From Armatimonadota bacterium (lineage in GTDB: Bacteria; Sysuimicrobiota; Sysuimicrobiia; Sysuimicrobiales; Humicultoraceae), in NCBI GenBank assembly GCA_037446215.1, contig JBBIJB010000053.1, positions 1 to 16,727 on the forward strand: a stretch of DNA of 16,727 nucleotides, in the 5' to 3' direction. Shown here in pieces: positions 200-9,388 of the stretch. Position numbers and translations under genes: made by a program. Each line of letters begins with the position of its first letter. Within the stretch, counting starts at the first letter, position 1. A model generated the notes under the pieces. It was given only the letters and a program-made list of their open reading frames with translations, was not told where the DNA came from and ran no database searches.

Positions 200-225
200 C
201 GAGATCGGTCCACGAGGAGGAGAAG

Positions 226-2148
226 ATGAACCGTTCTACCCATCGGGGATCCGGAGAAGGTCCCGGCGCGATCTTCACCGCCCTCACGGTTACCCTGGGG
301 CTGCAGGCGATGCGGGCGTTCTTTCCCCTGGTCGTCTACGTTTACGGCACCCGGCCGGGCGTCTCCTCGGTGGGGATGGGGATCGTCGCGATCGGGGTCT
401 TCCTGGCTGCCTGGCTGGCAGCGGCGCCGGCGCGGGTGCTCGGGGTACGCCGGGCACTCGCCTTCTCGGCGGCGCTACTGGCTCTCGCCCGCCTGCTGGC
501 CCAGTTCGTCGGCCCCAGCGAGGCGCTCTGGATCTCGGCCGCAGGCACCGTCGCCTTCCTGTGGGCGTTCCCCGCGCTGATAGGGATGGCCAGGAGCGGC
601 GGCAGCGGGGGCGCCGTGCGCCTGGCCATCGGGCTGCTGCTTGGCGTCGCGATAGACACGGCGATCTCCGGGGCCTTCTTGACGCTCGACCCGATCTGGC
701 AGCGGACGTTCTGGGCCTCTGCCGCGTCGCTGCTGCTGGTGCTGGGCTATGCGCGCCTCTTCCGAGGGATCGGCAGGAGCGCGCCCGGGCCGGAGGGCAC
801 CGACGCCCCGCTGGGGTCCACGCTGGCGCTGGCCGGTATCGGGCCGATCCTGCTCCTCCACATGTTGCTCCTTCAGAACGTCGCGCGCCTGACCGCGGTC
901 ACCGGCTGGCCTATGCCGGCGGCGCTGCTCCTGATCTTGGCGGCCGACGCGGCGGCCGTCGCCACGGCCGCGCGCGTTAGGAGCGCCGGGGCAGGCATCG
1001 TCGCGGCGCTGGTCCTGATCCCCTCCGCCTACCTGGCCCACGGCCCCGGGCTCGAGCCGCCTGGACCACTCCAGGCCGCGGTGGCACTGGCCGCGGCGTC
1101 AGTCGCGGCGGCTATGCTCCTCACCGCGATCCTCGCCGAGCAGGGCCGCGGGCCGTTCGGCAGGGGCCTGATCAGGACGGCGGTGGGGTGGGGGCTGGGT
1201 ACGACCATCTTCGTGATACCCGCTTTCCTCTATTACGTCGCATACGACATCGCGCTGCCGTTCGAGAGCGCGTGGCTTCCCCCGGTCCTGGCCGGGCTGG
1301 CCGCGATCGCCGCGCTGGGGCCTCTTCGCGCGCTCCGGCAGGCGGCCCCCCTACATAGGGGGCGGGGGAGGGCGGTCCTCGCCCTCCTTCTCGTGCCGCT
1401 CGTCGCCTGGCCCTTCCTCCGTGCTCCCGATACACAGCCGGGCACCGGCTGGCCGATCCGCGTGATGTCCTACAACCTCCACCAGGGCTTCGGGATCTCG
1501 GGCTCTCAGGACCTGGAGGCGCTCGCCCGGACAATCGAGGAGGCGGGGGCCGATCTCGTGGCCCTCCAGGAGGTCTCCCGCGGCTGGGTCATCAATGGGT
1601 CGACCGACATGCTGGTCTGGCTTGGGCGTCGGCTTCGCATGCCCTATGTTTGGGGCCCGGCGGCCGATGCCGTGTGGGGGAACGCGATCCTCTCGCGCAG
1701 GCCGATAGCGGCCTGGGGGAACCAGGAGCTGCCACGCGGCGGGGCGCCGATGCGCAGGGCCGTCATGTGGGCCGAGGTGGAGCTCGGCGGCGGGGAGAGG
1801 CTGCTGGCGATCGCGACCCACTTCCATCACGTCGAGGGGCACGGCCACATCCGCGAGCCGCAGGCCGCGGAGGTCGTCCGGCTCTGGGGCGGTCGGGAGA
1901 AGGCCGTCCTGCTCGGGGACCTCAACGCCCACCCGGACGCGCGTGAGATGGCGGTGCTGCGCGAGGCCGGGCTCCGCGACGCCTTCGCCCTCGCGGGCCA
2001 GGGCGACGGATTCACCTACAGGTCGGACCGTCCCTACGAGAGGATCGACTACATCTGGCTCTCGCGGGACCTGGGCGCGCGCGAGTTCAAGGTGATGCCG
2101 GGCCAGGCCTCGGACCACCTGGGCATAGCCGTAACGCTACTGCGCTGA
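226..2148 (+). CDS. Polytopic membrane protein with C-terminal endonuclease/exonuclease/phosphatase (EEP) domain; Cwh43/PGAP2IP-like
   Basis: RBS GAGGAGG at 214-220 before ATG 226. About 400 aa of hydrophobic helices, then EEP motifs SYNLH, ADLVALQEV, GNAILSR, THFH, LLGDLNAHP, RIDYIW and SDH. Confidence 0.9.
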   Translation: MNRSTHRGSGEGPGAIFTALTVTLGLQAMRAFFPLVVYVYGTRPGVSSVGMGIVAIGVFLAAWLAAAPARVLGVRRALAFSAALLALARLLAQFVGPSEALWISAAGTVAFLWAFPALIGMARSGGSGGAVRLAIGLLLGVAIDTAISGAFLTLDPIWQRTFWASAASLLLVLGYARLFRGIGRSAPGPEGTDAPLGSTLALAGIGPILLLHMLLLQNVARLTAVTGWPMPAALLLILAADAAAVATAARVRSAGAGIVAALVLIPSAYLAHGPGLEPPGPLQAAVALAAASVAAAMLLTAILAEQGRGPFGRGLIRTAVGWGLGTTIFVIPAFLYYVAYDIALPFESAWLPPVLAGLAAIAALGPLRALRQAAPLHRGRGRAVLALLLVPLVAWPFLRAPDTQPGTGWPIRVMSYNLHQGFGISGSQDLEALARTIEEAGADLVALQEVSRGWVINGSTDMLVWLGRRLRMPYVWGPAADAVWGNAILSRRPIAAWGNQELPRGGAPMRRAVMWAEVELGGGERLLAIATHFHHVEGHGHIREPQAAEVVRLWGGREKAVLLGDLNAHPDAREMAVLREAGLRDAFALAGQGDGFTYRSDRPYERIDYIWLSRDLGAREFKVMPGQASDHLGIAVTLLR

Positions 2149-2172: not shown

Positions 2173-2757
2173 TCATCTACCGTCCCCCTTCCCTACGCGC
2201 TGGACCTCCAGGTGCCGGAAGCAGCCCACGACGTGGTCGTTCACCATGCCGGCGGCCTGCATGAAGGCGTAGCAGATGGTGGAGCCCACGAACTTGAACC
2301 CCCGCTCCCGCAGCTCCTTGCTCATCGCGTCCGACTCGGCCGACCTCGCGGGTATCTCAGACTCCGCCTTGTACCGATGGACTATCGGCCGCCCTCCGAC
2401 GAACTTCCAGATGTACCGATCGAAGGAGCCGGACTCCTCCTGGGCCTCGAGAAACCGCCGCGCGTTCGAGACCGCGGCCTCGACCTTGAGCCTGTTGCGG
2501 ATGATCCCGGGATCGGCCAGGAGCCGCGCCACGTCGTGCGCTCCGTACCGTGCCACCTTAGCAGGGTCGAAGCCGTCGAGGGCGGCGCGGAAGCCCTCCC
2601 GCTTCCTGAGCACGATCGCCCAACTGAGCCCTGCCTGGAAGGCGTCGAGGACCAGGAGCTCGAACAGCTTCCGGTCATCGTGGAGCGGCACACCCCACTC
2701 GGTATCGTGGTAGTCGATCATGAGCGGGTTGGACTGAGGCCAGGCGCACCTTCTCAA
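2173..2757 (-). CDS. tag: DNA-3-methyladenine glycosylase I
   Basis: C-terminal 194 aa of the 2173..4041 ORF: RCAW, YHDTEWG, FQAGLSW, GIIRNRLKV, GFKFVGSTICYAFMQAAGMVNDH. The Zn ligands are present (Cys in RCAW, His in YHD, HxxxC). TTG start at 2757 follows GGAGG and overlaps the gmhA stop (TTGA). Confidence 0.95.
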   Translation of the reverse strand: MRRCAWPQSNPLMIDYHDTEWGVPLHDDRKLFELLVLDAFQAGLSWAIVLRKREGFRAALDGFDPAKVARYGAHDVARLLADPGIIRNRLKVEAAVSNARRFLEAQEESGSFDRYIWKFVGGRPIVHRYKAESEIPARSAESDAMSKELRERGFKFVGSTICYAFMQAAGMVNDHVVGCFRHLEVQRVGKGDGR

Positions 2758-3326
2758 ATCCCTTCCTCCACGAGCGCGCACAGGACGTGGCCGATCGTCA
2801 TGTGCGCCTCCTGCACGCGGGCCGTCGTCCCCGAAGGGACGCGGATCGCCACGTCCGCGAGGCGGGCGAGCTCCCCGCCGTTCGCTCCGGTCAGGGCGAC
2901 GACGCGCGCGCCCGCGCGGCGGGCGGCCGCGGCCCCTTCTATGACGTTTCGTGAGCGGCCGCTGGTCGATATGGCAACGACGGCGTCGCCCTTCCCGGCC
3001 GCGGCCTCGACCTGTCTCGCGAAGACGGCATCGAAACCGTAGTCGTTCCCTATCGCGGTGATGGCCGAGGCATCGGCGCACAGCGCGACCGCCGGGATGG
3101 CGGGCCTCTCCCTGGCGAACCTGCCGACGAGCTCCGCGGCAAGATGCTGCGCGTCGGCTGCGGAGCCGCCGTTGCCGAAGAGCACTATCCGGCCGCCTTC
3201 CCTGACCGTCCCGAGCAGGAGCTCTGCCGCCTGGGCCACCGCTTCGGTAAGCGACTCCGCGCAGCGCCGGTGCACCTCCGCGCCCTCCTCGATCTCGGCG
3301 CGCACCCGCTCCACCAGGACGCCCAA
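2754..3326 (-). CDS. gmhA: D-sedoheptulose-7-phosphate isomerase (phosphoheptose isomerase, SIS domain)
   Basis: Motifs GNGGSAADAQHLAAEL, IGNDYG, FARQV, ISTSG, LTG and VQEAHxxxGH. Start uncertain: TTG 3326 has GGAG 8 nt upstream and gives 190 aa; in-frame ATGs also lie at 3353 and 3365. Confidence 0.9.
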   Translation of the reverse strand: MGVLVERVRAEIEEGAEVHRRCAESLTEAVAQAAELLLGTVREGGRIVLFGNGGSAADAQHLAAELVGRFARERPAIPAVALCADASAITAIGNDYGFDAVFARQVEAAAGKGDAVVAISTSGRSRNVIEGAAAARRAGARVVALTGANGGELARLADVAIRVPSGTTARVQEAHMTIGHVLCALVEEGI

Positions 3327-3375
3327 CCGCCCCTCTCCACCAGCCGCTAGCATCGAGGTTTCCATGGGCTGTGCA

Positions 3376-3403
3376 ATTCTCCGCGGAACCCGGCGATCCC
3401 CGC
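3376..3403 (-). promoter_or_regulatory. Possible SigH-like promoter for gmhA-tag
   Basis: Minus strand reads GCGGGGA-N17-GAAT, similar to the AGGA-N17/18-GAAT consensus of Firmicute SigH promoters. Confidence 0.3.
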
Positions 3404-3416
3404 CGGCCCCCGAATC

Positions 3417-3425
3417 TGCTAACAT
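3417..3425 (+). promoter_or_regulatory. Putative extended -10 promoter for the ABC operon
   Basis: TGcTAACAT matches TGnTAnnnT and lies about 40 nt upstream of the ATG at 3466. No clear -35. Confidence 0.45.
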
Positions 3426-3465
3426 TGGCGGACAGAGACCCACGATCAGAACAGGAGGTCTTTCT

Positions 3466-4467
3466 ATGCGTAGTTGGATCGCGCTGGCCGTGGCAATCGC
3501 CCTTCTGGCACCTGCCGCCGGGATGGCACAGGCCCCTTCGCTGACCGTCTACTCCAGCGTGGACGAGGAGAACGCGCGCAAGATACTGGGGGCGTTCTCC
3601 AAGGCGACGGGGATAGAAGCCCGCATCACCTTCCTCTCGACGGGCCCCGCGCTTGCACGGCTCGAGGCGGAGAGGAACAACCCCCAGGCCGACGTGTGGT
3701 TCGGGGCGCCGAGTGAGAACCACGTGGACGCCAAGCTCCGCGGCCTGACCCAGCCCTACGCCTCGCCCGCGGCGGCTAAGCTGGACGCGCGGTTCCGCGA
3801 CCCCGAGAGCTCCTGGGTCAGCTTCTACATGAACCCGCTGGGCTTCGGCCTCAACACCAAGGTCCTCGAGGGGCGCGGCATCAAGCGGCCGGTCTCGTGG
3901 CAGGATCTTCTCAGTCCCCAGTTCCGCGGCCTGATCCAGATGCCCAGCCCGCAGACCTCGGGGACCGCCTACAACATGGTGGTGACGCTCGTACAGCTCA
4001 TGGGAGAGGAGAAGGCCTACGCCTTCATGAAGCAGCTGCACCCCAACGTCCAGACCTACACCACCAGCGGCACCGCGCCGTCGCGCGCGGTCGCCTTCGG
4101 CGAGGTCGCGGTGGGGATCCAGTTCACGCCCGCCCTCTACCAGCTCTACTTCCGCGGCTACCCGATCCTGACCGTCTTCCCGAAGGAAGGGGTCGGGTTC
4201 GAGGCGCCGGCGATCTCGATCGTGCGGGGCACGCGCCGCGAGACCGAGGCCCGTCGGCTCGTGGACTGGATAGTCTCGCCCGAGGGACAGAACACGCTGG
4301 CCGAGCAGGAGACGTTCTTCTTCCCCGTGACCGGCGCGGCCAAGCGCCAGGTCGGGCTGCCCGCGCTGCGCCTGGTCCCGCTCATCAAGTACGATGTTGA
4401 CTTCGCCGGCAAGAACAGGAAGCGTCTTGTGGATCGCTGGATCGCCGAGGTGCTGGGCGGCCGTTAG
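3466..4467 (+). CDS. ABC transporter substrate-binding protein, AfuA/FbpA family (probably binds an organophosphate)
   Basis: RBS AGGAGG at 3453-3458 before ATG 3466. Sec signal peptide MRSWIALAVAIALLAPAAGMA with no lipobox Cys. Motifs AERNNPQADVWFG, PQTSGTAY, LHPNVQTYTTSG, EGVGFE and RKRLVDRW. Confidence 0.9.
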   Translation: MRSWIALAVAIALLAPAAGMAQAPSLTVYSSVDEENARKILGAFSKATGIEARITFLSTGPALARLEAERNNPQADVWFGAPSENHVDAKLRGLTQPYASPAAAKLDARFRDPESSWVSFYMNPLGFGLNTKVLEGRGIKRPVSWQDLLSPQFRGLIQMPSPQTSGTAYNMVVTLVQLMGEEKAYAFMKQLHPNVQTYTTSGTAPSRAVAFGEVAVGIQFTPALYQLYFRGYPILTVFPKEGVGFEAPAISIVRGTRRETEARRLVDWIVSPEGQNTLAEQETFFFPVTGAAKRQVGLPALRLVPLIKYDVDFAGKNRKRLVDRWIAEVLGGR

Positions 4468-4474
4468 GCCGCCC
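4455..4474 (+). other. GC-rich hairpin over the stop codon of the binding-protein gene
   Basis: GGGCGGCC-GTTA-GGCCGCCC is a perfect 8-bp stem with no U-tract after it. Confidence 0.5.
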
Positions 4475-4509
4475 TACCCTCCTCGAGAGCGCGGGGCATC
4501 CCGACGGTG

Positions 4510-6210
4510 ATGGCTGAGTCGCACAGGCCTGCGCCGACCGGTGGCGGGCGCGGCAGGGAGCTGCGCAGGTTGTTGGCGGACCCCGTGGTCCTGCTGGCCG
4601 CCGCGCTGATCCAGGCCGCGCTGCTCATCTTCATCGTCTGGCCGCTGGTGCGGGTTGCGATAGTCAGCCTGACGCCCGGGGGCGCGTTCTCACTCGACGC
4701 CTACGCGGAGCAGCTGCGCTCCTGGTACGTCCAGCGCGCGGTCCTGAACAGCCTGATGGTGGGGGTGCTGACCGCGGGCGCGAGCGTAGCGATCGGCTTC
4801 GCCTACGCCTACGCGCTCGTCCGCACCGCGATACCACTGAAGCGGCTCTTCCACATGCTAGCGATACTGCCGATCGTCTCGCCGCCGTTCGTCTCCTCGA
4901 TCGCGATAATCCTGCTCTTCGGACGCGGCGGGGTGATAACCCACGGGCTATTGGGCCTGCGCGACTTCAACATCTACGGCTTCAAGGGGCTCCTGCTCGC
5001 GCAGGTGATGACGTTTGCGCCGGTCGCCTACCTGGTCCTGCGGGGTGTTCTCGAGGGGATAGATCCCACCCTCGAGGACGCGGCCCTCAACCTCGGCGCA
5101 AGGCGTTGGACCGTCTTTCGGAGGGTGACGCTGCCGCTCGCGGTGCCAGGGGTGACCAGCGCTTTCCTGGTGGTCTTCATAGAGTCCCTGGCCGACTTCG
5201 GCAACCCTCTGCTGCTCGCCGGGAGCGCCTTCCCGGTCCTGTCGGTGCAGGCCTATCTCCAGATAACGGGGATGTTCAACCTGCAGGCCGGTGCCGCGCT
5301 CGCGATGCTCCTGCTGGCGCCGTCGGTGGGCGCCTTCGCCATCTACAGGCTGATCGTCGGCAGGCGCCGCTACGTCACCGTCACCGGTAAGCCCGGGCGC
5401 TCCTCTCTGAAGGCGACCAGCCCGGCCGCCACTTGGCTGCTGTTCGGGGCGACGGCCGGAGTGGCGGCCGTGGTGGTGATGTTCTACGCGGTCATCGTCG
5501 TGGGCGCGCTGGCGCGAACCTGGGGCGTTGACAACACGCCGTCGCTGGATGCGATCCGCTACGTCCTGGACGTGGGCCGCGAGACGATCAAGGACACGCT
5601 GTTGATAGCCGTGACCGCGACCCCGATATCGGGCCTGCTGGGCATGACGATCGCGTTCCTCGTCGTCCGCAAGAGGTTCCCGGGCAGGCAGGCGCTCGAG
5701 CTCACCTCGCTGCTCAACTTCGCCCTCCCGGGAACGGTCGTCGGCATCGGGTACATCCTCGCCTTCAACCAGCGGCCGCTGCTGCTGACCGGGACCATGG
5801 CCGTACTGGTGGCGTGCTTCGTCTTCCGCTACGTGCCGGTAGGGATACAGGCGGGCATAGCGGTACTGCGGCAGATAGACCCCTCGATAGAGGAGGCCGC
5901 CCAGAACCTGGGCGCGCCCAGCGCCGTGACCTTTCGGCGCGTCACGCTGCCGCTGCTGAGGCCGGCGTTCTTCTCGGCGCTGGTCTTCGCCTTCGTGCGC
6001 GCGATGACCGCGATCAGCGCCGCGGTCTTCCTCGTCTCCGCGAACTGGAGCCTGATGACCGTCCAGATACTCAGCGAGGTCGGCTCAGGTCGGTACAACG
6101 CGGCAGCCGCCTACAGCCTGGTGCTTCTCGCGATAGTGATCGCGGCGATCGGCGTCATCGGTCTGATGCTGCGCCGCGGGTACAGCCCTGTTCAGGGGAG
6201 GTTCCTGTAG
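4510..6210 (+). CDS. ABC transporter permease, AfuB/FbpB family (two fused membrane domains)
   Basis: About 12 hydrophobic helices, two EAA loops (LEDAALNLGA and IEEAAQNLGA), plus SPPF and ADFGNP motifs. GTG 4507 is an alternative start. Confidence 0.92.
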   Translation: MAESHRPAPTGGGRGRELRRLLADPVVLLAAALIQAALLIFIVWPLVRVAIVSLTPGGAFSLDAYAEQLRSWYVQRAVLNSLMVGVLTAGASVAIGFAYAYALVRTAIPLKRLFHMLAILPIVSPPFVSSIAIILLFGRGGVITHGLLGLRDFNIYGFKGLLLAQVMTFAPVAYLVLRGVLEGIDPTLEDAALNLGARRWTVFRRVTLPLAVPGVTSAFLVVFIESLADFGNPLLLAGSAFPVLSVQAYLQITGMFNLQAGAALAMLLLAPSVGAFAIYRLIVGRRRYVTVTGKPGRSSLKATSPAATWLLFGATAGVAAVVVMFYAVIVVGALARTWGVDNTPSLDAIRYVLDVGRETIKDTLLIAVTATPISGLLGMTIAFLVVRKRFPGRQALELTSLLNFALPGTVVGIGYILAFNQRPLLLTGTMAVLVACFVFRYVPVGIQAGIAVLRQIDPSIEEAAQNLGAPSAVTFRRVTLPLLRPAFFSALVFAFVRAMTAISAAVFLVSANWSLMTVQILSEVGSGRYNAAAAYSLVLLAIVIAAIGVIGLMLRRGYSPVQGRFL

Positions 6211-7307
6211 TGGTGCCCATCCCGGCCGACGAGGCCGCCCTCGTAGTGGACCGCGTCACCAAGATCTTCGCCGACCCGAGCGGGGCCCCGGTGACCGCCG
6301 TGGACGATGCGTCGCTCTCCGTCCGTGGAGGCGAGTTCGTCTCGCTGCTCGGCCCGAGCGGCTGCGGCAAGACGACCCTCCTCCGGATAATCGCGGGGTT
6401 CGAGACGCCCACCTCGGGCGATGTTTGGCTGGGGGGTCAGAGGGTCACCCACCTCTCCCCGGACGCGCGCGACACCGCGATGGTCTTCCAGTCGTACGCC
6501 CTGTTCCCTCATCTGGACGTCTTCGAGAACGTCGCGTTCGGGTTGCGGGTCCGACGGATCGGCGAGGACGAGACGCGCTCGCGGGTCGGCGAGGCACTCA
6601 CGCTTGTGGGGCTCGAGGGGCTCGCGAAGCGCTCCCCGGACCAGTTGAGCGGCGGGCAGCAGCAGCGCGTAGCCGTGGCCCGCGCGGTGGTCACGAGGCC
6701 CAGGATCCTGCTGCTGGATGAGCCCCTCTCGAACCTGGACGCCAAGCTGCGCGAGCAGATGCGGATCGAGCTGCGCCGCATCCAGCGCGAGGTTGGGATC
6801 ACCGCCGTCTACGTGACCCACGACCAGGTGGAGGCGATGACGCTGGCGGACCGCATCGTCGTGCTCGATCGGGGTCGGATCAGGCAGGTGGCGCCCCCCG
6901 CCGAGCTCTACGCCCGGCCGGCCACCCCGTTCGTCGCCGGATTCGTCGGCAGGGTGAACCTGCTGGAGGGGCTGGTGGTGGAGTCGGCCGGCGGCCGGTG
7001 CCGCGTGGCGCTCGCCGGGGTCGAGGCATCGGTGCCGTCGTCGGCGGAGCGGCGGCGGGGCGCGCGGGTCGCAGTGGTCGTTCGGCCCGAGACGGTACAC
7101 CTGGGCCGGGGCGACGGCCTGGTCGGGACAGTCAGGCGCGCGGTCTACCTCGGATCGCAGGTCGAGTACGAGGTGGAGGTGATGGGCCTGCGCCTGGAGG
7201 CGATCGGGCGCAGCCCACTCGAGGAAGGGATCTTCGCCGAGGGAGACCAAGTGGGGGTCACGGTAGGGTTCCAGGTGGCCCACCTGCTCGACCTCGAAGC
7301 GGAGTAG
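6210..7307 (+). CDS. ABC transporter ATP-binding protein, AfuC/FbpC/PotA type with C-terminal TOBE-like domain
   Basis: Walker A GPSGCGKTT, Q-loop VFQSYALFPH, signature LSGGQQQR, Walker B LLLDEP and VTHD. GTG 6210 overlaps the permease stop, with RBS GGGGAGG at 6195-6201. Confidence 0.93.
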   Translation: MVPIPADEAALVVDRVTKIFADPSGAPVTAVDDASLSVRGGEFVSLLGPSGCGKTTLLRIIAGFETPTSGDVWLGGQRVTHLSPDARDTAMVFQSYALFPHLDVFENVAFGLRVRRIGEDETRSRVGEALTLVGLEGLAKRSPDQLSGGQQQRVAVARAVVTRPRILLLDEPLSNLDAKLREQMRIELRRIQREVGITAVYVTHDQVEAMTLADRIVVLDRGRIRQVAPPAELYARPATPFVAGFVGRVNLLEGLVVESAGGRCRVALAGVEASVPSSAERRRGARVAVVVRPETVHLGRGDGLVGTVRRAVYLGSQVEYEVEVMGLRLEAIGRSPLEEGIFAEGDQVGVTVGFQVAHLLDLEAE

Positions 7308-7357
7308 GCCGCCCGCCGGAGGCCCGGAGGCGGACGCGGGAAGATGAGGGGGACACG

Positions 7358-9388
7358 ATGGAGCGACGCGCAGCCAGGATCGAGGATCTGATCGAGGTCC
7401 GATTCCCGCACAACGCGGCCCTCTCTCCCGATGGGAGCACCGTCGTCTTTGCGCTGGGAAGGCTGGAGCTGGAGTCGAACGAGATCAGGAGCCGGCTCTG
7501 GAAGGTGCCCTCGTCCGGGGGGACGCCGACCCCGTTCACGACAGGCGATGGCCGCGACGCCTCGCCGACCTGGTCGCCCGACGGCCGCTGGATCGCCTTC
7601 CTTTCGAACAGGGGGGGCAAGCAGAAGGGGCAGAAGCGCGCCGCGATGCAGCTCTGGCTTATCCCCTCCCAGGGAGGCGAGGCCCGCCAGCTCACCTTCT
7701 TCAAGGCCGGCGTCAGCCAGCCCTCATGGTCGCCGGACGGGCGGTCTATCGCATTCGTCTCGCGCGGCAGCCTGGATCGCATGGAAGCGGACGAGGCCGA
7801 GGAGCCGGCGGTCGTCCGCGAGGTCGCGCGTCCGAAGTACCGCTTCGACGCCATGGGCTACCTGGACGGCTACGCTCACATCTGGACCCTCTCTGTCGCC
7901 GGTCTTCTCGTCGGCGACGAGACCTCGGCCTCGCCCCCTCTGCCGGTCAGGATGACCGAGGGCGACTTCGACCACGACTCGCCTGCCTGGCTCCCCGGAG
8001 GAGCCGAGATCGTCTTCCTGGCGAACAGGACGGAGCGGGCCGACTTCTCATTCGTCCGAGACCTCTGGGCCGTAGGAGCGGACTCCCGCGCCCTGCGTCA
8101 GATCACCAGGAACAGCGGCCCCTGCGTCTCGCCCGCCCCCTCCCCGGACGGCAGGTGGATCGCCTACGTTGCCCACGACATGCGCTCGATGAGCGCGACC
8201 AACTTCGGCATCTGGATCGTGCCGGCCGAAGGCGGCGAGTCGGTCAACCTGACCGCTTCGTTCGACAGATCGATCGGCAACGCGGTGGGGAGCGACGTGC
8301 GGCTCGTGCCCATGTTCCCAGCCCCGGCGTGGGCGCCGGACGGGGGATCGCTCCTGTTCTTCTCCACCGACTCGGGCCGAACCCACCTCTACCGAGTGGA
8401 GGCGAAGGATCGGAGCGTCACCCAGTTAACCGACGGCCCGGAGGTCATCGCCGATCTCACCGCGGCAGGGGGCGTCGCGGTCTACCAGCGGATAACACCT
8501 ACCGCGCTGGACGAGCTGTGGGTCCTGCCGCCCTCCGGTGAGCCCACCAGGCTGGCGGGTTTCAACGACGATCTGCTCGCCGCGCTCGAGATCGGGGAGC
8601 CCGAACGCTTCGGCTACGAGGGGGCGGACGGGTGGCCGATGGAGGGCTGGGTGCTGAAGCCGCCCGGCTTCGACCCGTCCAGGAGATACCCTGCGATCCT
8701 GCGGATCCACGGCGGCCCCCACGCGGCGTTCGGCGACGCCTTCAACCACTACGTGGCCGTGCTCTCGGCCGCCGGCTACGTGGTAGTCTGGACCAACCCC
8801 CGCGGCAGCGGCAGCTACGGCGAGGCGTTCACCCGGGCGGTGATCGGCGACTGGGGCGGGAAGGACAGCCAGGACATCTTGATGGGGCTGGACTCGGTCG
8901 TCTCGGAGGGATACATAGACCCCGAGAGGGTGGCGGTCACCGGCGGCTCCTACGGCGGCTTCATGACCTTCTGGCTGATCGGTCACACCGCCCGCTTCCG
9001 ATGCGCCGTCAGCGAGGTTCCCGTCAGCAACCTGCTGAGCTTCTTTGGGACGAGCGACATCGGCGCGACCTGGGGCGAGATGGAGTGGGAGGCCAACCCC
9101 TGGGACGATCCCGATCGGCTGCTCCGCCACTCGCCGCTGATGTACGCCAGGAACGTGACCACGCCGGTCCTCATCACCGCGAACGAGGCCGACCACCGCT
9201 GCCCGCCCGAGCAGGCGGAGCAGTTCTACATGGCGCTGCGCAAGCTCGGCAAGGAGGCCCTATTCCTACGCTTCCAGGATGAGAGCCACACGATGAGCTC
9301 GAGCGGCAGGCCCAAGCCGCGGATCGAGAGGCTGCGCCGCCTGGTCGCCTGGTTCGAGCGGCACCTGGAACCTTCGCGCCACTCCTAG
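7358..9388 (+). CDS. S9 family serine peptidase (acylaminoacyl/dipeptidyl aminopeptidase type; beta-propeller plus alpha/beta hydrolase)
   Basis: RBS GAGGGGG before ATG 7358. Repeated (W)SPDG propeller motifs, IHGGPH, NPRGSGSYG, nucleophile GGSYGG, Asp in ADHRCP and His in ESH. No signal peptide. Confidence 0.93.
   Translation: MERRAARIEDLIEVRFPHNAALSPDGSTVVFALGRLELESNEIRSRLWKVPSSGGTPTPFTTGDGRDASPTWSPDGRWIAFLSNRGGKQKGQKRAAMQLWLIPSQGGEARQLTFFKAGVSQPSWSPDGRSIAFVSRGSLDRMEADEAEEPAVVREVARPKYRFDAMGYLDGYAHIWTLSVAGLLVGDETSASPPLPVRMTEGDFDHDSPAWLPGGAEIVFLANRTERADFSFVRDLWAVGADSRALRQITRNSGPCVSPAPSPDGRWIAYVAHDMRSMSATNFGIWIVPAEGGESVNLTASFDRSIGNAVGSDVRLVPMFPAPAWAPDGGSLLFFSTDSGRTHLYRVEAKDRSVTQLTDGPEVIADLTAAGGVAVYQRITPTALDELWVLPPSGEPTRLAGFNDDLLAALEIGEPERFGYEGADGWPMEGWVLKPPGFDPSRRYPAILRIHGGPHAAFGDAFNHYVAVLSAAGYVVVWTNPRGSGSYGEAFTRAVIGDWGGKDSQDILMGLDSVVSEGYIDPERVAVTGGSYGGFMTFWLIGHTARFRCAVSEVPVSNLLSFFGTSDIGATWGEMEWEANPWDDPDRLLRHSPLMYARNVTTPVLITANEADHRCPPEQAEQFYMALRKLGKEALFLRFQDESHTMSSSGRPKPRIERLRRLVAWFERHLEPSRHS

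Follow-up and report, generated by a model that had tools for sequence, protein, structure and literature searches.

A bacterial membrane protein that joins a transporter-like fold to a putative outward-facing phosphodiesterase domain, a probable relative of the PGAP2IP/Cwh43 core

Could a bacterium encode a full-length relative of PGAP2IP/Cwh43, the eukaryotic proteins of glycosylphosphatidylinositol (GPI)-anchor lipid remodelling, and what might such a protein do? The question is raised by a gene on contig JBBIJB010000053.1 (assembly GCA_037446215.1; Armatimonadota bacterium, Sysuimicrobiota in GTDB), whose entire 16,727 bases, one of 149 contigs of a 2.16-Mb genome that is 91% complete, form the window analysed here. 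The coding sequence (226..2148, + strand; 640 amino acids (aa) plus stop) specifies a domain of 12 transmembrane (TM) helices with the fold of the major facilitator superfamily (MFS), a thirteenth helix and a C-terminal phosphodiesterase domain of the endonuclease/exonuclease/phosphatase (EEP) fold. A first-pass annotation of the sequence had proposed a full-length homologue of Cwh43/PGAP2IP. Our analysis indicates that the protein is most probably a prokaryotic full-length relative of the PGAP2IP/Cwh43 core, on a branch farther from the eukaryotic proteins than a second bacterial subfamily described below. On balance, we lean towards reading it as an integral-membrane, outward-facing, metal-dependent phosphodiesterase related to that core, which would act on a lipid-linked substrate held by its MFS-like domain.

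The C-terminal domain (aa 411–640; 1456..2145, + strand) belongs to the EEP superfamily. The Pfam model PF03372 matched over its full length (positions 1–225 of 225; aa 414–631; E 3.5e-21, 76.4 bits), and the catalytic N, E, H, D-x-N, D and D-H set is complete. It comprises N417 in SYN (1474..1476), a putative metal ligand; E449 in LQE (1570..1572), a putative metal-binding glutamate; H532-F-H534 in THFHH (1819..1827); D565-L-N567 in GDLN (1918..1926); D608-Y609 in RIDYIW (2047..2052); and S629-D630-H631 in SDH (2110..2118), with a putative general-base histidine, all on the + strand. The roles of N417, E449 and H631 are those that we presume from other EEP enzymes. Twelve residues of the domain (N417, H419, E449, H532, H534, D565, N567, D608, Y609, S629, D630 and H631) are invariant among 61 relatives, which bears out the earlier statement that the metal-binding and catalytic motifs are intact. 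In an AlphaFold2 model, the domain superposes on solved EEP proteins. When PDB sequences were searched with a profile, EEP domains alone were matched and no chain named Cwh43 or PGAP2IP was found; the best chains of named activity were those of beta-hemolysin (E 8.7e-8), TDP2 (E 6.7e-5) and nocturnin (E 1.7e-4). We take the beta-hemolysin chains to be the S. aureus beta-toxin, a sphingomyelinase C. With its catalytic set intact, the domain is apparently a functional, if putative, phosphodiesterase.

The AlphaFold2 model, built from the 61-sequence whole-protein alignment (predicted local distance difference test, pLDDT, 92.4; predicted template modelling score, pTM, 0.92), shows 13 long helices followed by the alpha/beta domain 411–640, in line with the 'roughly a dozen' TM helices of the first-pass annotation. 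From the modelled helices and their conservation, we delineated an N-terminal six-helix half (TM1–6, aa 13–185; 262..780, + strand), a C-terminal six-helix half (TM7–12, aa 196–372; 811..1341, + strand) and TM13 (aa 380–398, broken into helices 380–386 and 389–398; 1363..1419, + strand), with a basic HRGRGR stretch ahead of it. The first half carries the conserved motifs FGLQxLR (G25, Q27, R30), RLxEQ (R89, Q93), DTA (D144) and TLDPIW (T153, D155, W158), and the second half GP (206–207), QN (217–218), GWP (227–229) and YYxxYD (336–341). Among the 61 relatives, G25, Q27, R30, G107, G140, W158, N218 and Y336 are invariant.

The membrane part has the 12-helix, two-times-six fold of the MFS. A Foldseek search with residues 1–370 returned 74 matches at E<=1e-3, the best being NorC (9.8e-6), and the matches listed were all MFS transporters, several of them in an outward-open state. 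The sequence gave a different picture. In aa 1–413, neither an MFS model nor any other Pfam family was detected at E<=10; MFS_1 was found in one of the 61 relatives (E 0.0084), and an hhalign comparison of the family's TM-only alignment with the window's own MFS_3 transporter gave 0.3%. Because sequence-level MFS models and the profile were unmatched, the MFS fold of the protein does not lead us to file it under any MFS family.

Which side of the membrane the EEP domain faces, a check proposed in the first-pass annotation, was predicted from the charges of the loops. The loops that share a side with the N terminus hold 14 lysines and arginines and those opposite hold 3, from which the N terminus is predicted to be cytoplasmic and the EEP domain to lie outside the cytoplasm. 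Placed by conservation, modelled helices and this charge-based topology, rather than by measured coordinates, D144, T153/D155/W158, Q217/N218 and Y336/Y337/Y340/D341 would lie in the outer helix halves or outer loops, near the EEP domain. The pTM of 0.92 suggests a fixed interface between the TM and EEP domains.

Kinship with PGAP2IP/Cwh43 was assessed with the three Pfam models made for PGAP2IP: PF23022 (6TM_1st), PF23021 (6TM_2nd) and PF23226 (Exo_endo_phos_PGAP2IP). PF23226 matched the EEP domain at 26.9 bits, against a cut-off of 27 (E 3.5e-6; model positions 9–170 of 239), and precomputed Pfam annotation assigns this family to the protein. The same model matched all 61 relatives (best E 1.8e-15) and 65 of 83 more distant representatives (best E 1.4e-16), of which just 66 matched the generic PF03372. 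The module plan also agrees. The boundaries TM1–6 at 13–185, TM7–13 at 196–398 and EEP at 411–640 give the same split as that printed for mammalian CWH43 (699 aa; D1 1–190, D2 191–406, D3 407–699) in a 2026 preprint (10.64898/2026.05.01.722067), and the AlphaFold2 model shows the colinear plan of six TM helices, six TM helices and a C-terminal EEP domain in a protein of about 640–700 aa. In an Atlas look-up of the TM part, used as a lead only, the nearest named cluster was a bacterial one (score 0.81–0.83, below 0.9), in which 18% of the members carry PF23021 and 22% carry PF23226.

An indirect link runs through the second subfamily. PF23021 was run on 401 Chloroflexota genomes and gave three matches at E<=1e-3, none above its cut-off of 27. 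The best was to a 662-aa protein, L083 (26.3 bits; model positions 113–176); the two other open reading frames (ORFs) looked unrelated by eye and were dismissed. L083 has 12–13 TM helices followed by an EEP domain whose PF23226 score (71.7) equals its generic EEP score. It represents a rarer subfamily (L083, L087–L090) with motifs such as VYDYIPVVG and GLQESD; no other relative of its TM region was found in the 401 sampled genomes (1/401), and four metagenome relatives, 37–48% identical to it, score 77–85 bits with PF23226. PF23021 was the top family in four of the five second TM halves of this subfamily (25.1, 19.7, 21.8 and 19.3 bits; E 1.8e-5 to 1.1e-3; three matches at model positions 113–176 and one at 10–170), and PF23022 matched none of the five first halves. 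A TM-only hhalign comparison of the window's family with the L083 type gave 89.9% (E 1.7e-6, 382 colinear columns, score 55.3), against scores of 16–17 for 2 reversed alignments and at most 36.4 for 20 block shuffles, and 0.3% for the true MFS transporter. The chain joins the N half of the family to the N half of L083, and the C half of L083 to PF23021, and holds only if each protein is one evolutionary unit. Overall, we consider full-length kinship of the protein with PGAP2IP/Cwh43 to be quite probable.

Set beside known systems, the protein most closely resembles mammalian PGAP2IP (gene CWH43; 699 aa) and the last two-thirds of fungal Cwh43, whose modules have the same order and size, with two six-helix membrane modules followed by a C-terminal EEP domain. 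It is borderline in PF23226, its sister L083-type subfamily matches PF23021 below the cut-off, and its EEP domain is predicted to be non-cytoplasmic; that of Cwh43 lies in the lumen of the endoplasmic reticulum. In contrast to Cwh43, it has no Frag1/PGAP2-like N-terminal module. Another reference point is the GlcNAc-PDase (N-acetylglucosamine phosphodiesterase) family, which Fossa et al. 2023 (PMC10704324) place in the same EEP cluster as Cwh43p/PGAP2IP. These enzymes are secreted by Clostridia and remove phosphocholine or phosphoethanolamine from GlcNAc-6 (PMC10704324). Conserved EEP metal ligands and, as predicted for the present protein, the metal-dependent hydrolysis of phosphodiesters are common to both. 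At 219–357 aa they are soluble single-domain secreted EEP proteins with a signal peptide and no TM helix, as described there (PMC10704324), whereas the present protein has 640 aa and 13 TM helices, and we do not count it among them. Bacterial sphingomyelinase C/beta-hemolysin and the human neutral sphingomyelinases are soluble or peripheral, have no MFS-fold domain and share only 19–24% identity. With MFS transporters, including the lipid carriers Spns1, SPNS2 and MFSD2A, no sequence kinship was detectable, and the protein adds TM13 and a fused enzyme domain to their fold.

How, then, might such a protein work? In the lipid-linked reading that we favour, the twelve helices form the MFS fold and TM13 would carry the chain back across the membrane, placing the EEP domain on the outer face. 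From the fold, the catalytic set, the conservation and the predicted topology, all taken from the analyses above, we infer that an outward-open cavity or lateral gate of the MFS-like domain may hold the lipid part of a membrane-anchored substrate, be it a phospholipid, a glycolipid or a lipid-linked glycan, and that the EEP domain may cleave or transfer at the phosphodiester between lipid and head group. Since the host is a bacterium, and bacteria are not known to have GPI anchoring, the substrate must differ from a GPI anchor; a lipid or glycolipid of another kind is a reasonable inference. The chemistry would be of the phospholipase-C or sphingomyelinase-C type, a hydrolytic counterpart of the Cwh43 lipid swap, the exchange of diacylglycerol or phosphatidic acid for ceramide that is ascribed to Cwh43 (PMC4962981).

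Several observations weigh against this reading. PF03372, the generic EEP model, fits this protein far better than PF23226 does (76.4 versus 26.9 bits). Neither PF23022 nor PF23021 matched aa 1–413 at E<=10 or any other part of its own genome. PF23022 was found in one of the 61 relatives (E 1.4) and in one of the 83 representatives (E 0.023); none of 70 second TM halves matched PF23021, which is also missing from the 25 families listed (of 29) for the 61 relatives and from the 20 families for the 83 representatives. On five genomes with family loci, PF23022 matched nothing but a fragment and a sensor-like ORF (E 0.0055) that looked unrelated by eye, so the match at E 0.023 is regarded as noise. 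A further gauge of noise is Proton_antipo_M, which matched the second TM half of one locus (L054) at 24.4 bits, above its cut-off of 21.5, and that of another (L059) at 19.5 bits, probably spurious matches between TM segments. The PF23021 matches of the L083 type all fall below the cut-off of 27 (19.3–25.1 bits for the second halves), and the hhalign signal resides in the N halves (93.6%, E 2e-7), the C halves alone giving 1.6%. No gene neighbourhood is conserved across 79 family loci, and the window's neighbours (a Tag glycosylase, an ABC (ATP-binding cassette) importer and an S9 peptidase) are uninformative on the substrate. An inositol-lipid substrate was considered and dropped because inositol-1-phosphate synthase (PF01658) was not detected in the 91%-complete genome, six control genomes being positive. 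Finally, the MFS fold suits a true transporter equally well, and those enzymes of the same EEP cluster that have been characterised act on glycans as soluble phosphodiesterases and are not lipid enzymes (PMC10704324).

The direct TM tests were HMM (hidden Markov model)-to-sequence searches, which may lack reach. Length-restricted searches for longer proteins at E<=10 (1218–3475 aa with the whole-protein alignment, 733–2090 aa with the TM-only alignment) returned nothing, which is weak evidence, and a TM-only search of representatives gave only the close family among its best 150. Of the proposed full-length homology with Cwh43/PGAP2IP, two elements find support, the borderline placement of the EEP domain in the PF23226 group and the module plan. 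The TM part yielded no direct PF23022 or PF23021 match, and the resemblance to the Cwh43 TM domains on which the first-pass annotation had staked its claim was not recovered by these profile searches.

The transporter-like fold suggests a different division of labour, in which an outward EEP domain cleaves an external phosphodiester and the MFS domain imports one of the products, as a nutrient-scavenging fusion. Candidate substrates would include glycerophosphodiesters, sugar phosphate esters and choline- or ethanolamine-phosphate esters. All twelve helices of an MFS fold are present in the TM part, whose overall shape cannot be told from that of real transporters, and an R70...G73 motif in the TM2–TM3 loop is nearly invariant; we take it to resemble MFS motif A. 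Characterised EEP relatives free phosphocholine or phosphoethanolamine from sugars (PMC10704324), and an OpuAC-type betaine/choline binding protein with an ABC permease lies no more than two genes away in 7 of the 79 loci (L035, L046, L049, L050, L056, L063 and L067). This synteny, however, is limited to one lineage, all seven loci being from Dehalococcoidia. The sequence moreover resembles no MFS family (MFS_1 and hhalign results above), the conserved polar residues are grouped towards the outer face instead of lining a central translocation path, and the apparent kinship with PGAP2IP/Cwh43 points to proteins not known as transporters. We judge a coupled hydrolase-importer to be unlikely, though it is the alternative to which we give most weight.

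A little less probable, in our view, is a membrane-tethered glycan phosphodiesterase that trims phosphocholine, phosphoethanolamine or a similar phosphodiester-linked group from envelope glycopolymers or glycoproteins in the manner of the secreted GlcNAc-PDases, while the TM domain would chiefly anchor the enzyme or offer a partner a scaffold. It would suit the predicted outward orientation of the EEP domain and the single EEP cluster in which PMC10704324 places an 'Asgard/Chloroflexus group' together with Cwh43p, PGAP2IP and the GlcNAc-6-PC/PE (phosphocholine/phosphoethanolamine) phosphodiesterases secreted by Clostridia. But a plain anchor needs no 13 helices with Q27, R30, D144, W158, N218 and Y336 near-invariant across 61–147 diverged sequences, and the fixed TM–EEP interface suggested by the pTM also argues against a passive tether. 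An extracellular, membrane-anchored nuclease or nucleotide phosphodiesterase appears very improbable. The only NCBIfam match, to ExeM/NucH, is meaningless (E 0.0052; 15.7 bits, where the cut-off is 300), sphingomyelinase-type chains outrank TDP2 and nucleases by sequence, the PGAP2IP-type model PF23226 matches every one of the 61 relatives, and the conserved polytopic TM domain would be left unexplained.

The family is sizeable and widespread. In a word-indexed search, 228 of 8000 scored candidates proved to be homologues at E<=1e-3; the 120 listed, most of them 620–700 aa long, align over 95–100% of the query, and those with names are 'endonuclease/exonuclease/phosphatase family protein' entries from Armatimonadota, Chloroflexota or Anaerolineae metagenome-assembled genomes. 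A scan of one genome per prokaryote species retained 474 relatives out of 537 pattern matches. The best 80 of these 474 come from Armatimonadota, Sysuimicrobiota, Chloroflexota and Actinomycetota, and include Candidatus Nitrosymbiomonas (Armatimonadota, 67% identical), Candidatus Fervidifonticultor (Sysuimicrobiota) and, within Chloroflexota, Anaerolineae, Dehalococcoidia, Ktedonobacter and SAR202. With a TM-only alignment of 70 sequences, 1.84 billion representatives yielded 1019 proteins at E<=1e-3 (772 at <=1e-10 and 353 at <=1e-30), a count of representatives at 50% identity matched by the TM part alone. Within its own lineage, the gene is patchy: it is present in four of seven other genomes of the genus and, at E<=1e-10, in 22 of 94 genomes of the phylum, the window's own included (20 of 92 without two unpublished genomes). 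It is single-copy in this genome.

Two further observations concern variants within the family. A third, divergent subgroup in the window's phylum (L092, L094–L099; TM-profile E 1e-14 to 1e-30) carries the motifs GVHALR...VWNI and LQEVGRGW. The seven proteins of this subgroup that were scanned matched EEP models only, and two of its ORFs are about 800 aa long with arginine-rich N-terminal extensions, which may be mis-called starts. In two complete or long-read Dehalococcoidia assemblies (L056 and L079), the family gene is matched in two different frames, representing either a frameshifted copy or an assembly error.

The ORF at 226..2148 is a real conserved gene, as the 228 homologues and the 1019 TM-part representatives confirm. 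Its reading frame is unbroken back to base 1, the contig end. Relatives of 624–640 aa begin aligning at about residue 14 and an 83%-identical 640-aa relative covers 100% of the protein, which makes the ATG at 226 the likely start; a Shine-Dalgarno-like GAGGAGGAG (214..222, + strand), read directly in the sequence, lies 3 nt 5' of this ATG. All strings quoted in the first-pass annotation occur in the translation where it had located them: SYN at aa 415–417, LQE at 447–449, THFH at 531–534, GDLN at 564–567, DYI at 608–610, SDH at 629–631, the stretch LQEVSRGWVINGSTDMLVWLGRRLRMPYVWGP...WGNAILSRRPI, GLLLG at 137–141, TLDPIW at 153–158 (DPIW being bases 688–699) and GIGPILLLHMLL...GWP at 204–229.

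Around the gene, close relatives have an S9 peptidase gene in common on the upstream side; on the downstream side they share a gene for a trehalose-phosphate synthase/phosphatase, a D-Ser-dehydratase-like protein or Tag. This is synteny by descent. In 5 of the 79 loci (L029, L033, L037, L054 and L059), the immediate same-strand neighbour of the family gene is a diacylglycerol-kinase-like gene (DAGK_cat + YegS_C), which would be sensible if the enzyme released diacylglycerol and could also be chance; an undecaprenyl-diphosphate synthase gene lies near it in 2 of the 79. Like the OpuAC-type neighbours, these are hints at most. Frag1 (PF10277) and PIG-M (PF05007) were unmatched in the 91%-complete genome, in searches run without a positive control.

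The rest of the window holds other functions. On the − strand, 2173–4041 reads as a 622-aa ORF in which the 3-methyladenine DNA glycosylase I domain (PF03352, E 2.2e-80) is confined to the final 177 residues (aa 434–610); the real tag gene probably spans about 2173–2750, the rest being a spurious high-GC frame that overlaps the binding-protein gene of the + strand. An ABC importer operon lies on the + strand (3058–7307), with an SBP_bac_6/11/8 solute-binding protein, a two-domain BPD_transp_1 permease and an ATPase with TOBE_2, whose ORFs overlap because the first possible start codons were used. The S9 peptidase (6998–9388, + strand) is of the prolyl-oligopeptidase family with PD40 beta-propeller repeats, and its homologues lie near the family gene in 11 close-relative loci. 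Between 9413 and 16530 are a GntR/UTRA regulator, an ArsR-type helix-turn-helix protein whose long N-terminal part has no Pfam match, the MFS_3 transporter, a class II fumarase (− strand) and a succinyl-CoA synthetase beta subunit, all ordinary housekeeping genes.

The family has been seen before: Pfam labels the EEP domain, and a group that probably includes it was noted in 2023, when Fossa et al. grouped Chloroflexota and Asgard EEP proteins of differing size and domain organisation with Cwh43p/PGAP2IP (PMC10704324). The window's gene is one more member of this family and brings no new context. Apart from that work, our literature search found no paper on bacterial full-length Cwh43/PGAP2IP homologues, nor any description of an MFS fold for CWH43 or the membrane domain of the family. 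The activity of the eukaryotic Cwh43/PGAP2IP EEP domain is itself called vague in PMC10704324, and variants of human CWH43 have been linked to hydrocephalus (10.64898/2026.05.01.722067).

A bolder, and to our minds doubtful, proposal is that this family is the bacterial version of a machine later adopted by eukaryotes to remodel the lipids of GPI anchors. Its MFS-fold domain would present a lipid anchor, taken from the outer leaflet, to a fused EEP transesterase that would swap or remove the lipid of a membrane-anchored glycoconjugate. If true, lipid anchors would be remodelled outside the cytoplasm in Chloroflexota, Armatimonadota-like and Actinomycetota lineages, along a route not yet described in bacteria, and the membrane part of Cwh43/PGAP2IP would be an MFS-derived lipid-binding module. 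With 1019 TM-part representatives and no characterised member among them, one assay would annotate many genes. A compact bacterial relative with a high-confidence fold offers a tractable model for expression, assay and structure determination, and such a model could reveal the way in which a lipid-linked substrate is passed from a membrane domain of transporter fold to an outward-facing phosphodiesterase.

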